DNA of 25,941 bases from Candidatus Heimdallarchaeota archaeon (GTDB lineage Archaea > Asgardarchaeota > Heimdallarchaeia > Hodarchaeales > Hodarchaeaceae): assembly GCA_048881705.1 (NCBI GenBank), contig JBHLSH010000057.1, forward strand, positions 1 through 25,941. Direction: 5' to 3'. Every line of letters begins with the position of its first letter. The stretch's first letter is position 1. The position numbers and the translations under genes were made by a program. The notes beneath the pieces are model-generated. The model had not been told where the DNA came from. It searched no databases and saw nothing but the letters and a program-made list of their open reading frames with translations. Shown here piece by piece: positions 6,960 to 11,757 of the stretch.

Positions 6960-8069
6960 TCACCTTCCCTTGTTATATGATTTGATTATCTGGGCATACT
7001 GCCGTCCTGACACTCGAATAGCGGAAGAAGAGGAGAGGTGTTTGTTACATCGAGAGCAGGCTCCAGCTACTGCGATCCATTTCTGGAATTCATTGCCATG
7101 AGCAGGATATCTGCAGTGTGGACAGATCACCACTTCTTTGTGATCTTCTATTGGAAACTCATAACAAAAGATACATCTAAAATCATCTTTGCTAATATTT
7201 CTTCCCATAGGGACATATTTAGACAAATTTGTTCTTGTTACTTTCGCCATACTCTGTTGGGCAGTCTGTACCTGTAATCCGGGAGCCACACGGACATCCC
7301 GACGGATATTTTGGGTTCGAGAAGCAGCACTTCGAGTGTTTGATGATAATCTGGGCTGTGGGGAGCGCCGTTCTGATATTGATCTACGATCTCTTGATGA
7401 TCTCGGCCGTATCGTCCGAGAAGAGGTCTGTCGGGTACGAGGAACCCGTTTAAACGGAACAAGAACAATTTTCATTATATAATGTTGAATAAATAAACCC
7501 AAACTTAAGATACAAAACAGTAAGCCCCCAAATTCAATTAATCCCTGTTCAATCCAATAGAGGAAGAATATGATGACCAAGGAAAAATTATGGACAATCA
7601 CCGCTTCGTTCGGAAATGGACGTCGATTTATAAAAAATTTAGGATACTGGCCAATATAATAACGGCGAAGAAGTATAAGTAGCGCTCCCATTGATGGGAT
7701 CACGATAATTAAACCAAAGAGGTTCCAGAAAATACTTACGCCACCCAAATTTAGAAAACTTAAATCTAACGATATATCGAAAAGAGAAGTTTGGAGCATA
7801 TCATTAATCCCAAAGGAAGCCAAGTGGGCCAAGAGGCTTCCTCCCACCCCTATCAGAGTAGGAATCACAAGGAAGGTCGCAGAAGCTAACGGCGCGTTAT
7901 ATGACCTAAAATAACGCCATTCGTCTACCAGTTTTATCAGGAGAAGACTAACAAAGGTGAGAAAGAAAAATGTTAAAGCGACGTTCTGAGGTTGACCGAT
8001 GACCAGAGAAAGAATGCCGAAGACAAATCCAATGACAAACACAACAATGTAGGTATTCCGTTTGATCAC
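6960..8069 (-). CDS. Multi-pass membrane protein with C-terminal RING-like zinc finger (putative membrane E3 ligase)
   Basis: About 6 TM helices, an Arg/Ser-rich linker, then C-x2-C-x13-C-x2-C-x4-H-x2-E-x3-W-x6-C-x2-C (CIFC...CPHCRYPAHGNEFQKWIAVAGACSRC). It is the last gene of the E1/E2/JAMM run. Confidence 0.8.
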   Translation of the reverse strand: MIKRNTYIVVFVIGFVFGILSLVIGQPQNVALTFFFLTFVSLLLIKLVDEWRYFRSYNAPLASATFLVIPTLIGVGGSLLAHLASFGINDMLQTSLFDISLDLSFLNLGGVSIFWNLFGLIIVIPSMGALLILLRRYYIGQYPKFFINRRPFPNEAVIVHNFSLVIIFFLYWIEQGLIEFGGLLFCILSLGLFIQHYIMKIVLVPFKRVPRTRQTSSRTIRPRSSRDRRSISERRSPQPRLSSNTRSAASRTQNIRRDVRVAPGLQVQTAQQSMAKVTRTNLSKYVPMGRNISKDDFRCIFCYEFPIEDHKEVVICPHCRYPAHGNEFQKWIAVAGACSRCNKHLSSSSAIRVSGRQYAQIIKSYNKGR

Positions 8070-8103: not shown

Positions 8104-8982
8104 TTATTCGTGGTCATATTCCAGAAACATCGTTTTACCTTCTGCCAACGGTAACAAGGTTTGGATCATCTGAGGAAGGCTTTCTAAGGGACAGTTCAAA
8201 ACTCGGAAGCTTGGCTCCTCCCACGTCCGTAGGTCCTTCCTTAATCGAAAAATCTTGAATCCATACGAGGAAGAGGAAATTTCGGTCGGATCAATAACCA
8301 AAGCAATGGGAGCCGCCAAATGAGAACCTTGACTGCCAAGCCTTTGATAACGTACCTGGGTTTGAAAATCCGTTTTACTCATGAAAGGGGAATAGGATGG
8401 ATGAGAATGGTACCACCCGAGTATTCGGTGTCCTGCCTTCACTGCATCCTCATAAACTTTCACCATGCTTTGCGGATCTTGGATTTGTGCGTTGACATTT
8501 GTACCGTGTCCAATTGGATAGGCATCCGTAACCACCAAGCATGTTAAAGGAGTGTTTGGATGTTCCACATGTCCCGTAAGAAGGCCAATGACCTCTACCC
8601 ATTCAGAGCGGGGAAGAGAATCATTAGCATACTTTAAAGCATGAAGCGCCAGCTTTAGATATGCCTTAAGGTTAAGTTTCACCCGAGGTGGCTCATGAAG
8701 TTCACCTAAATCAATGTCCAAATCAGTTACAACATCATCTCTCCTGTGTTTTGTATCCGTCCGCGTAGCGGGAGGAGATCGATCTTCATCGGAATGGAGG
8801 GTCATGACGGAAGGTGTTCTATGATGCGATCCCTTAGATAACGCCCGTTCCAGTGATTTATCAGGGGTAGAGACTTTCAATGTGATAGTTGACAATTTGG
8901 GGTCGAACATCAATGATACGTCTCGCAGGAAGAATTCAAAGGTACTAGGACCATGGCCTCTACGTCTTGGTTCTTTATCTAT
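8104..8982 (-). CDS. JAMM/MPN+ metalloprotease, Rpn11/CSN5-like (Ubl isopeptidase)
   Basis: EVIGLLTG (catalytic Glu), GWYHSHPSYSPFMSKTD (H-x-H-x7-S-x2-D) and ALVIDP. Start is uncertain: TTG/ATG at 8913/8910, but the frame is open to 8988 with an ATA at 8982 six nt behind an AGGTGA SD. Confidence 0.92.
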   Translation of the reverse strand: MDKEPRRRGHGPSTFEFFLRDVSLMFDPKLSTITLKVSTPDKSLERALSKGSHHRTPSVMTLHSDEDRSPPATRTDTKHRRDDVVTDLDIDLGELHEPPRVKLNLKAYLKLALHALKYANDSLPRSEWVEVIGLLTGHVEHPNTPLTCLVVTDAYPIGHGTNVNAQIQDPQSMVKVYEDAVKAGHRILGWYHSHPSYSPFMSKTDFQTQVRYQRLGSQGSHLAAPIALVIDPTEISSSSYGFKIFRLRKDLRTWEEPSFRVLNCPLESLPQMIQTLLPLAEGKTMFLEYDHE

Positions 8983-9010: not shown

Positions 9011-9538
9011 CTACCATTTCTTGTTGGCATATTTCTTTGTAATCTCTTGGGCTTTTTTCTTAAACTTCTCAGGACTATTCAAATACTCCACAGCGGCCTT
9101 CTTATTGAAAACATCCCTAGGGTTGGTATATGCCGCATCCACATCCAACATTGCAAGAATCGAATGAATCACCGTGGTAATATTTTTGGAAGGGGACCAC
9201 CCATCGGGCCGTCCAACTAGATCGGGGTCAATGAGAGCCAAACAGATATTCCGTTTCCCCTTATATTCATCAGGCTTAGGCCAAAAATTGGGATGCCAGA
9301 TTGGAGTATGTAAACGGACGAATGGGGGAATATAGGGATAATTTCCTCCGAACTTGATTTCGAGCTTGAATTTGCCCTTGCTGTACGGGGTTCCTTTCGG
9401 GCCTTCAAGGAGCAGGGCTAGGTGCTCAACAGATTTTTTTGGTCCCGGGAAAGCTTTCAGCTGTTTTATTGTCCCGCTTTTGTACAGCTTCTTCAGCTGA
9501 TTATAATCTTTGGAGATGCGTTTTATTCGAATTGAAAT
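9011..9538 (-). CDS. E2 ubiquitin-conjugating (UBC) enzyme, ~175 aa, probable ATT start
   Basis: Manual extension of track ORF 9011..9241 gives (M)SIRIKRISKDYNQLKKL...LLEGPKGTPYSKGKFKLEIKFGGNYPYIPPFVRLHTPIWHPNFWPKPDEYKGKRNICLALIDP...GWSPSKNITTVIHSILAML...NPRDVFNKKAA. It carries GPxGTPY, YPxxPP, HPN and the catalytic Cys. AGGAGGT lies 8 nt upstream of ATT at 9538. Confidence 0.93.
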   Translation of the reverse strand: MSIRIKRISKDYNQLKKLYKSGTIKQLKAFPGPKKSVEHLALLLEGPKGTPYSKGKFKLEIKFGGNYPYIPPFVRLHTPIWHPNFWPKPDEYKGKRNICLALIDPDLVGRPDGWSPSKNITTVIHSILAMLDVDAAYTNPRDVFNKKAAVEYLNSPEKFKKKAQEITKKYANKKW

Positions 9539-9551
9539 TGTGGTAAACCTC

Positions 9552-10796
9552 CTATTTGTACTGTAAATTCAAATATATTTCGGGGACATTCTCAAACCCC
9601 GTTACTAATACGGATTCGTGATTTCGAATGTTGAGATCCTCGAGGGATAAATCTAAGGAGATTTCATCTACTTCCGAGGAATCGATTCGAAAAACTGTTG
9701 GAGGAAATTCAGAATCGAAAGAGATTTTCTTCTTGTTAGCAATAAAATCAATGACCTTACGAACAGAATGGCTTGGTTTTGTTCGAATTCGATACAAGGG
9801 AGACCTACGAGGCCCACACAATTCACATTCTTGATTTCGAGGTTTAGGAATTTCGTAAAACTTCCCCGTTAGGCCGTTGTATATTATGTAGTTTAGCTGG
9901 AGCGTTCCAAGTTTCTGCTCATCAGAAGGTGTACGTAAATGATGAAGAATCTTAACCGCTTCTTGAGACTGGATTGAAGCGACAACTGTGTTTATGGTGA
10001 TCACTGTTGGTTCGTGGTTATCGATGATTTGAATGATCTGATCTACTGTGAATGGATTTACACCTGGGAAATGCTCTTGAAGAAGAGAGTTTGCGTAAGC
10101 TTGAACTTCCTTTATTTCGTCTATGTGCAAGATGTCGGCATTTCGACCATGGTCTTGTTCAAATTTTAGTTGCCCCTTCAATATACAATGGGCAGGACGA
10201 CGAGGAACACCCACTAAAGTACAAGCACCTAGTTGATCCTGTTCCCGTTCAGTCAAAGGATCACATTCCAAGCAAGCGTTGTGGAATGGCCATACAACAT
10301 AGATATGGCCATTGTAGGCGGCGGTGCCTGCATCTATCAATGGTTTTCTGAAGTGGATCGCACGACGATTAAGCTCCGATCGCGCCTCAATAGAATCTAA
10401 TCCAGCAACAAACAGATCAGCTTCGCAATAAAGCTGAGGAGCGAGGTCTTGCAGCGCCATATGATATCCTTCAACTTGAATGAAGGGATTTAACTTACGA
10501 AGCTGTTTGGCTGCGTATTCGGCTTTGGAGCTCCCTTCTGGTGCGCCAACAAAGAGAACCTGCCTATTAAGATTCGAGTACTCGATTGTGTCAAGATCCA
10601 CAAGGATGAGCCTGCCTACTCCTACCATCGCGAGGTTTTTCGCGATTTCCACTCCGAGACCTCCGATTCCTGCGAGGAGAACCGTGCTCTGTTTCAATAA
10701 CTCCTGGTTCCAGCCGGGAAGCCGGAATTGCCTATCAAAGCGTTGTTTTTCCTCATCCGAAAGGAGTTCACTTGTGAAATTCGACCGTTGGCTCAT
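9552..10796 (-). CDS. E1 Ubl-activating enzyme, Uba3/Uba2-like, with C-terminal ubiquitin-fold domain
   Basis: RFDRQ, GIGGLG, DLDTIEYSNLNRQ, two Zn pairs (CLEC, CELC), catalytic ACTLVGVPRRPAHC and a ~85-aa C-terminal beta-grasp-like tail. Start is ATG 10796 (MSQRS) or TTG 10814 abutting the Ubl stop. Confidence 0.95.
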   Translation of the reverse strand: MSQRSNFTSELLSDEEKQRFDRQFRLPGWNQELLKQSTVLLAGIGGLGVEIAKNLAMVGVGRLILVDLDTIEYSNLNRQVLFVGAPEGSSKAEYAAKQLRKLNPFIQVEGYHMALQDLAPQLYCEADLFVAGLDSIEARSELNRRAIHFRKPLIDAGTAAYNGHIYVVWPFHNACLECDPLTEREQDQLGACTLVGVPRRPAHCILKGQLKFEQDHGRNADILHIDEIKEVQAYANSLLQEHFPGVNPFTVDQIIQIIDNHEPTVITINTVVASIQSQEAVKILHHLRTPSDEQKLGTLQLNYIIYNGLTGKFYEIPKPRNQECELCGPRRSPLYRIRTKPSHSVRKVIDFIANKKKISFDSEFPPTVFRIDSSEVDEISLDLSLEDLNIRNHESVLVTGFENVPEIYLNLQYK

Positions 10797-10814: not shown

Positions 10815-11213
10815 TTAACCTGCGGTTGATACAGGAATGATCAAACATTCTAGACCGTCTTCGATTTCGTAGTTGCCTAATATGTCATCTGGATCCAGTG
10901 TTCTCCCAGAAATAGATAAATGAAAATCCTGGGGATCAAGACCAAAGATCTGGCCAACTGTTATGGTGAGTTCTCGAACTGGCATTTCTGAATCAACCAT
11001 GAGTTTTTCGAGCTTCTCACCAGGACCAATCGTCGAGCGAAAATACAGATTTACACGGACGCCATGAGGAATTTTGGAGCTGGCTGGAGTTTTAGAATCA
11101 ATTCCAGGAGAAGGAGCTGGTTTAGGAGTTTCGGTATCATCTTCTGCCAAGTCTTCCATATCATCGAAGTCTTCATTTTCTTCTAGGGGTTTACGTTCTT
11201 CATTTTCAGACAT
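10815..11213 (-). CDS. Ubiquitin-like protein A (132 aa; acidic N-terminal tail; ends IPVSTAG)
   Basis: The C-terminal ~80 aa align by eye to ubiquitin (LYFRSTIG...IFGLDPQDFHLSISGRTLD...LGNYEIEDG...LIIPVSTAG). ATG at 11213 has AAAGGTGA upstream. The track's 11279 start lies in the promoter. Confidence 0.9.
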   Translation of the reverse strand: MSENEERKPLEENEDFDDMEDLAEDDTETPKPAPSPGIDSKTPASSKIPHGVRVNLYFRSTIGPGEKLEKLMVDSEMPVRELTITVGQIFGLDPQDFHLSISGRTLDPDDILGNYEIEDGLECLIIPVSTAG

Positions 11214-11274
11214 GTAATCACCTTTCCAACTAAATAAGGTTGGGTACATGTATCTAAGAGAACGGAGAGTGAAG

Positions 11275-11292
11275 TACACTTTAAACCTTCCT
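11275..11292 (-). promoter_or_regulatory. Candidate TATA box for the UblA-E1-E2-JAMM-RING operon
   Basis: The minus strand reads AGGAAGG-TTTAAA ~70 nt upstream of the UblA ATG, downstream of the UblB oligo-T tract. Confidence 0.4.
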
Positions 11293-11406: not shown

Positions 11407-11757
11407 TCATCCGGCTGTACTATGGGGGATTAACAGGATTTCATCCCCGTTATTAATCCCATAATCTCCGATTGGAGCAGACTCATCCAACGTACGTCCC
11501 GCGTGAGACAGGTGGAAGTCATCGGGATTCAACCCGAAAATGTTAGCTAACGTGTCACGAACGTCGCGAACAGGGGTATTTTCACCAACCGAGAGCTTTT
11601 CGGTTCGTTCAGGGCCCACTGTAGATTTAAAAAAAACATTCTTTCGTGGACCAGCACCAGTAGCAGATACAGGTGTTTTAGATTGGGCTGGAGTTTTGGA
11701 TTTAACTTGAGTTTGCCCTTCCTCAAGATCAAAGTCTAAATCTTCAAAGTCACTCAT
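11407..11757 (-). CDS. Ubiquitin-like protein B (116 aa; acidic N-terminal tail; ends IPHSTAG)
   Basis: NVFFKSTVG...IFGLNPDDFHLSHAGRTLDESAPIGDYGINNGDEILLIPHSTAG is a clear ubiquitin beta-grasp pattern and a paralogue of UblA. Confidence 0.92.
   Translation of the reverse strand: MSDFEDLDFDLEEGQTQVKSKTPAQSKTPVSATGAGPRKNVFFKSTVGPERTEKLSVGENTPVRDVRDTLANIFGLNPDDFHLSHAGRTLDESAPIGDYGINNGDEILLIPHSTAG

Follow-up and report, generated by a model that had tools for sequence, protein, structure and literature searches.

A ubiquitin-conjugating enzyme gene with a probable AUU start codon in a Hodarchaeales Asgard archaeon

We analysed a 25,941-nucleotide (nt) stretch of DNA (the window: positions 1 to 25,941 of contig JBHLSH010000057.1, assembly GCA_048881705.1) from a Candidatus Heimdallarchaeota archaeon of the order Hodarchaeales, which carries a eukaryote-like ubiquitin operon on its minus strand. 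The gene for the central enzyme of this operon, the ubiquitin-conjugating enzyme E2, has no canonical start codon (ATG, GTG or TTG) ahead of its conserved domain, and its translation probably starts by Shine-Dalgarno (SD)-directed initiation at an ATT codon at position 9538 (probability about 0.8). The window is contig C57 of the genome designated here G000, a metagenome-assembled genome (MAG) of 3.96 Mb and 91% completeness; its sister species is designated G001 (isolate TM1M.79, locus L002 = L021).

The E2 reading frame and its proposed start codon

The elements of the E2 gene and of its junction with the preceding gene, encoding the activating enzyme E1, are as follows.

9011..9538 (-): E2, UBC-fold ubiquitin-conjugating enzyme; proposed coding sequence of 175 codons with ATT start, TAG stop (9013-9011) and a Pfam UQ_con match
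9536..9538 (-): ATT, proposed near-cognate start, in the column of ATG or TTG in 17 same-genus orthologs and the same in G001 and in Logan contig L203
9546-9539 (-): spacer TTACCACA, 8 nt, between AGGAGGT and ATT
9547..9553 (-): Shine-Dalgarno motif AGGAGGT, overlapping the E1 stop, with 7 bases complementary to the 16S 3' end
9552..9554 (-): TAG stop codon of E1, 13 nt upstream of the E2 ATT
9239..9241 (-): TTG, first in-frame canonical start of the E2 frame, one codon past the catalytic Cys and not usable
9242..9244 (-): catalytic Cys codon of E2 (NICL), located from the translation and aligned with the Cys of UBE2L3
9287..9295 (-): HPN motif of E2, within WHPNFW (9298-9281)

Upstream, the frame is bounded by an in-frame TGA at 9571-9569; from 9568 it runs without a stop as far as the TAG at 9013-9011, and no ATG, GTG or TTG occurs in frame between that TGA and the start of the conserved E2 domain. 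The original prediction had described the open frame, the TTG at 9241 after the Cys, the SD over the E1 stop and the ATT 8 nt further on, all of which are present in the sequence. Translation from ATT gives (M)SIRIKRISKDY, MSIRIKRISKDY..., and the Pfam family PF00179 (UQ_con) matches the product with an E-value of 1.7e-26 over profile positions 1-139 of 140, the match beginning six residues past the ATT. A phmmer search of PDB with the product matched UBE2L3, UBE2T and UBE2K (down to 4e-15); E2 residues 3-170 align to residues 4-152 of UBE2K, which bears out the proposed resemblance of the N-terminus to helix 1 of E2 enzymes. The solved E2s' own residues 3-4 align onto residues 3-5 of the ATT-started product, and the N-termini agree within 1-2 residues. 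The HPN motif and the downstream catalytic Cys are both present, with a 7-residue insert (PKPDEYK) between the two. The N-terminal helix 1 is part of the product only with a translation start at or near 9538, and a start at TTG 9241 would lose helix 1, the HPN motif and the Cys. Judged by these features, this is an ordinary, functional UBC-fold E2 gene of the Asgard (Heimdallarchaeia/Hodarchaeales) type, and both gene and operon are of a known kind.

The 16S ribosomal RNA of G000 (contig C20) ends in GGATCACCTCCT, so that AGGAGGT can pair with it over seven bases. In long open reading frames (ORFs) of G000, the distance from GGAGG to the first ATG peaks at 7-9 nt, and ATT 9538 lies within this peak, 9 nt past GGAGG.

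Comparison with orthologs gave the same position for the start. In 17 loci of the same genus, the column occupied by ATT contains ATG (16 loci) or TTG (one locus), followed by TCx ATx CGx ATT AAA (MSIRIK), and a GGAGGT-like SD precedes the start in these loci; ATT 9538 thus occupies the orthologous start position, a match beyond chance that supports the start proposed originally. We compared further E2 loci, 80 from species-representative genomes and 76 from usable metagenome contigs, and in these Asgard loci an ATG, GTG or TTG is found 2-7 codons ahead of a conserved Arg, with three exceptions (G001, L119 and L152); over some 170 Asgard loci, about 98% of the E2 orthologs have a canonical start. 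G001 has the same ATT as G000, and no further member of the ATT clade came up in a scan of metagenomes, the best match being 83% identical. Because all other close relatives have a canonical start, ATT is, on this comparison, a derived state confined to one small clade, G000 and its sister species G001. The original prediction had named ATG in all close relatives as evidence against a start at ATT; the closest of them, G001, has ATT, but the others are all canonical.

The other two exceptions, each known from a single contig, are L119:106-708 (SDBV01360405.1), with ATA where close relatives have ATG, and L152:1974-2522 (Ga0209427_10035284), with ACG in place of ATG. In both, the frame and the SD are intact, and by this comparison they are independent start-codon losses in the E2 family. 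Start loss in three lineages among ~175 orthologs is a frequency similar to our rough genome-wide estimate.

The G000 and G001 sequences, which are 93.4% identical over 3.5 kb with no indels (sister species, 6.6% diverged), allow selection on the frame to be estimated. In E2, 32 of the 36 substitutions are at third codon positions (p = 7e-12), as are 21 of the 24 differences in the N-terminal part (p = 6e-8). The ratio of non-synonymous to synonymous divergence (dN/dS) is 0.043 for the whole gene, with a synonymous divergence dS of ~0.33, and 0.040 for the stretch of 99 codons that precedes TTG 9241 (with 20.3 synonymous and 3.7 non-synonymous changes); the neighbouring E1 and JAB genes have ratios of 0.081 and 0.051. 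Read in the other two frames, the N-terminal stretch gives ratios of 3-7 and several stops. Purifying selection over dS ~0.33 indicates that both lineages have kept the whole E2 frame translated and under selection since their split, in both cases with ATT. An independent assembly, Logan contig SRR24270832_837534 (run SRR24270832), corresponds to window positions 12927-7187 with 7 mismatches over 5.7 kb, none of them in E2, and has the same ATT. Taken together, these comparisons indicate that the ATG-to-ATT change is real and inherited and that the full E2 frame is translated; the gene is intact and under purifying selection, with a dN/dS of 0.04 and no stop or indel in either species.

In the mechanism we propose, a G-to-T substitution in the third base would have turned the ancestral ATG into ATT before G000 and G001 diverged. 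The retained strong SD, AGGAGGT over the E1 stop, would set the small ribosomal subunit with ATT 9538 in the P site, the ribosomes arriving de novo or re-initiating after E1 termination 13 nt upstream, and initiator Met-tRNA would decode ATT as Met to give a product with a complete helix 1. We infer that ATT acts as the initiation codon and is decoded as Met with an output below that of ATG. Such a reduction is expected by analogy with S. aureus, in which AUU and AUA starts behind extended SDs work at ~10% of AUG (PMC13009471).

NCBI table 11 includes ATT among its alternative initiators. In E. coli, infC and pcnB have SD-directed AUU starts. These starts and the SD-led AUU and AUA starts of S. 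aureus (cvfC1 with AUU; infC, ccpN and citZ with AUA; PMC13009471) share with the E2 start a near-cognate codon that follows a strong, extended SD at fixed spacing, conservation among relatives, decoding by initiator tRNA, which for E2 is proposed, and a reduced output, which for E2 is expected by analogy. Unlike these bacterial cases, the E2 start belongs to an Asgard host with eukaryote-type aIF1, aIF1A and aIF2 and without IF3, shows no sign of autoregulation, and arose by recent substitution within a single small clade instead of being anciently conserved; it is read from sequence alone. It would be a new instance of a known, rare start type, in a lineage in which such starts seem unusually common. 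No publication dealing with near-cognate starts of Asgard archaea turned up in our literature searches; in ribosome profiling of Haloferax, near-cognate codons made up ~30% of the putative alternative initiation sites, which the authors set aside (PMC7261190). The retention of the ATG-to-ATT change under strong purifying selection in two species argues that an Asgard ribosome is able to start at AUU when a strong SD precedes it; with more than 150 orthologs to anchor the site, the change amounts to a clean natural experiment.

The start codon also determines whether the gene is seen at all. Stored gene calls for the Logan contig list both ubiquitin-like proteins (Ubl1 and Ubl2), E1 and JAB, and leave the 640-nt interval with E2 empty. 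The suggestion that E2 is hidden from automated annotation is thus confirmed on an independent assembly for the G000/G001 clade, in which the central enzyme of the operon is missing from automatic gene calls. The wider suggestion that such systems are generally under-counted was not supported, given the ~98% of orthologs with canonical starts. Since gene calling skips this E2, presence/absence tables of eukaryotic signatures in Asgard archaea can err for a trivial reason.

Objections and alternative explanations

Several observations weigh against initiation at ATT. Genome-wide, ATT is not enriched behind SD motifs (33/836, equal to background), so that ATT starts, if used, are few. Among annotated prokaryotes a switch from AUG to AUU was found in 1 of 61,358 starts (PMC5622118), and reviews of archaeal translation give only AUG, GUG and UUG as start codons (PMC7531240). 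Finally, no stop interrupts the E2 frame where it passes the E1 stop, which is compatible with a +1 shift.

Among the alternatives, the one that survives best is compatible with initiation at ATT and concerns its meaning: the codon may serve as an adaptive throttle, holding E2 at sub-stoichiometric levels relative to E1 or making it sensitive to start-codon stringency, as AUU does in infC. The retention of ATT in two species, the strong SD and the roughly tenfold loss of output at near-cognate starts in S. aureus (PMC13009471) are in its favour. However, the ~98% of orthologs with canonical starts have the same operon layout, unrelated housekeeping genes of G000 also have near-cognate starts, the frequency of start loss in E2 is close to the genome-wide estimate, and aIF1 itself starts at ATG in the genus. 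We saw no compensatory strengthening of the SD in the ATT clade, since the ATG-bearing loci L003, L005 and L007 carry the identical AGGAGGT, and no tighter coupling of E1 and E2, the gaps being 2-17 nt across the genus; the special E1-E2 coupling that had been suggested is in fact an ancestral close spacing. With ancestral spacing and an SD no stronger than that of relatives, nothing marks the ATT as an engineered throttle, and drift under relaxed start-codon selection explains it equally well, because at least 12 unrelated genes also lack canonical starts. A throttle is therefore not needed and is unlikely; the many other near-cognate starts in G000 favour a lower output that is merely tolerated.

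Initiation might instead occur at one of the other near-cognate codons in frame, ATT 9532 or ATA 9526, both of which precede the Arg at which the Pfam domain starts and would shorten E2 by 2 or 4 residues. Their distances from GGAGG are 15 and 21 nt, spacings that are almost never used by first ATGs in G000, and the orthologs start at the 9538 column, so that we regard this as improbable.

A programmed +1 frameshift at the end of E1 (AAA-TAG-G, with AAA read and then AGG) would produce an E1-E2 fusion and remove the need for an E2 start. In Euplotes, AAA followed by TAA or TAG is a +1 shift site, archaeal and eukaryotic release factors are homologous, and bacterial prfB has a +1 shift at CUU-UGA. 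The E2 junction is similar to these programmed sites in having AAA-TAG and a downstream frame that is +1 relative to E1 and open across the TAG from 9568. It differs from them in that the frame relation is not conserved: across relatives, all three offsets of the E2 frame from that of E1 (+0, +1 and +2) occur, with gaps of 2-17 nt and always with a separate SD and start for E2, which indicates that two proteins are the ancestral state, and AAA-TAG is common to G000 and G001 only. The open overlap is just 10 codons, about the length expected by chance, and the SD lies on or after the stop instead of 3 nt before the shift site, where prfB has its stimulatory SD. An independent SD with ATT at canonical spacing is available for E2, and at least 11 other genes of G000 without canonical starts have an SD and a near-cognate codon, so that a single initiation mechanism covers all of them. 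The fusion is unlikely, somewhat less probable than a start at one of the downstream codons.

Two explanations can be dismissed. That E2 is a start-less pseudogene or is untranslated, as the missing canonical start and the skipped gene call might suggest, is very improbable and was rejected on the purifying selection across the intact frame in G000 and G001, the N-terminal part being equally constrained. An assembly or sequencing error for ATG, raised in the original prediction, has nothing for it beyond the single base that separates ATT from the relatives' codon, and was rejected as the least probable explanation of all, because the T is shared by three assemblies (the MAG, the Logan contig and G001), one of them from a different species.

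Other genes without canonical starts

A screen of the whole G000 genome selected ORFs that span 150 codons or more from stop to stop and in which a coding-like leader of 40 or more codons precedes the first canonical start. It gave 28 candidates, of which 27 passed an additional coding filter applied to the ORF body, and in 12 of the candidates, E2 included, a Pfam domain begins upstream of the first canonical start. About eight candidates (HIT, SecY, MFS, PNP and others) fit a canonical start and were discarded as false positives, as was the leader of a zinc-ribbon ORF, C76:15924-16100(+) (...GGRGFKSHS..), which looks like a tRNA T-arm and 3' end. The genes of interest are listed below; the five with CTG have their apparent start behind an SD, and in the remaining seven the Pfam domain lies upstream of the first canonical start.

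C15:41353-42021 (+), L181: RlmE/FtsJ, CTG, with Pfam support
C56:24765-25751 (-), L182: Arf-like GTPase, CTG, with Pfam support and the P-loop in the leader
C10:6692-7765 (-), L183: PurP, CTG, with Pfam support
C3:48179-49147 (+), L185: unnamed gene, CTG
C58:17835-18419 (+), L187: flavin reductase, CTG, with Pfam support
C56:12322-13212 (-), L184: CDF transporter, ATT or ACG
C139:1817-3226 (+), L188: DHH phosphoesterase, ATT
C13:46072-47202 (-), L186: GNAT, ATC
C41:26117-27154 (-), L189: MBL hydrolase
C34:16493-18481 (+): RACo (ferredoxin domain)
C53:6341-8497 (+): response regulator
C37:21744-22199 (-): DUF2095

For several of these genes the change can be followed in relatives. At its N-terminus, RlmE of G000 and G001 has GGG-GTG-TAG in place of the ancestral ATG-GTG-TTx (C15:41338-41361(+) compared with L191-L193); the junction reads GGGGTG-TAG-CCT-CTG-CGA-AAA in these two genomes and ATG-CGA-AAA in G002. 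An in-frame stop thus stands right after the old start region, and the CTG two codons on is the sole start-like codon left. The Arf-like gene has CTG where G010, G017 and G002 have TTG, and in PurP the CTG is at the exact position of the ATG of G017. The CTG of all three genes is common to G001, and dN/dS in their leader parts is 0.07-0.17. The DHH gene has its ATT 9 nt past AGGAG, conserved in G000 and G001, and the CDF ortholog in G017 likewise has no canonical start.

In the in-frame codons of the leaders of 2,688 coding ORFs, CTG was found behind an SD in 24 of 285 cases against 10.8 expected (p = 2.6e-4), and ATC was weakly enriched (p = 0.01). Because a canonical codon is missing from codons 2-41 in only ~11% of genes, about one case in nine is visible to the screen; a rough extrapolation suggests that around 100 genes of G000 may be affected.

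The trait is not limited to the G000/G001 clade, because a sample of 1.2 Mb from a complete relative, G010 (C1:1-1200000; L204-L263), gave 10 N-free candidates per 852 coding ORFs, a rate similar to that of G000, after 8 of the 18 candidates had been discarded as artefacts of masked N runs. Examples in this sample are a CTG directly after TGA behind AGGAG, a DNA methyltransferase with an ATC start and a small Roadblock-like protein with an ACG or ATT start.

With at least 12 Pfam-supported cases among the ~11% of genes visible to the screen, the E2 ATT may be the tip of a relaxed selection on start codons in Hodarchaeales-type Asgard archaea, in which a few percent of genes (~100 here), including E2, the Arf-like GTPase, RlmE and PurP, would start at CUG, AUU, AUC or ACG behind an SD, with CUG favoured as in eukaryotes. 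We hold this broader view tentatively, at slightly less than even odds. A near-cognate start or a clade-specific change in aIF1 was considered as a lead and dropped: the gene starts at ATG in the five genomes checked (G000, G001, G010, G008 and G017), and by eye no change specific to G000 and G001 was seen in its core. The E2 and CTG cases provide concrete junction RNAs for the study of start-codon stringency in the closest archaeal relatives of eukaryotes.

The ubiquitin operon

The E2 gene is part of a tight minus-strand operon with the gene order Ubl1-Ubl2-E1-E2-JAB-membrane/RING-like protein. Besides E2, the operon contains the following genes.

11407..11757 (-): Ubl1, Pfam ubiquitin 2.8e-07, C-terminus ...STAG
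about 10815..11213 (-) (ORF 10815-11279): Ubl2, probable ATG at 11213 after GGTGA, C-terminus ...STAG
9552..10796 (-): E1 (ThiF family), 414 residues from ATG 10796, Pfam ThiF 6.3e-53; the identical 414-residue product is called on the Logan contig
8104..8910 (-): JAB/MPN metalloprotease, Rpn11-like, Pfam JAB 9.1e-14; called with 268 residues on the Logan contig
6960..8069 (-): multi-pass membrane protein with a C-terminal RING-like Cys/His finger, putative E3, from a reading of the translation by eye

Judged by its gene content, the operon has the archaeal ubiquitin-like set, with Ubl, E1, E2, JAB and RING-like genes co-oriented in one cluster. The Caldiarchaeum subterraneum operon (Ub, E1, E2, small RING and Rpn11; PMC5654768) has the same gene set in one tight operon, and the Asgard ubiquitin systems (PMC9192718) likewise comprise a Ubl, a ThiF-type E1, a UBC-type E2 with HPN and Cys, a JAB/Rpn11-like protein and a RING protein. 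Unlike these systems, the present operon has two Ubls with Ala-Gly ends, a RING-like protein that is a multi-pass membrane protein, and an E2 with an ATT start, the last only in the G000/G001 clade.

Ubl2, which had no match in the Pfam search, is judged by eye to be a paralog of Ubl1, and both terminate in Ala-Gly instead of Gly-Gly. The E1 start is ATG 10796 behind GGGAA; the mechanical ORF start, TTG 10814, adjoins the Ubl2 stop and is not conserved in G001. The membrane/RING-like protein (6960-8069), encoded by the last gene of the operon, also had no match in the Pfam search; a basic Ser/Arg-rich linker precedes its RING-like finger, and it is a candidate membrane-anchored E3.

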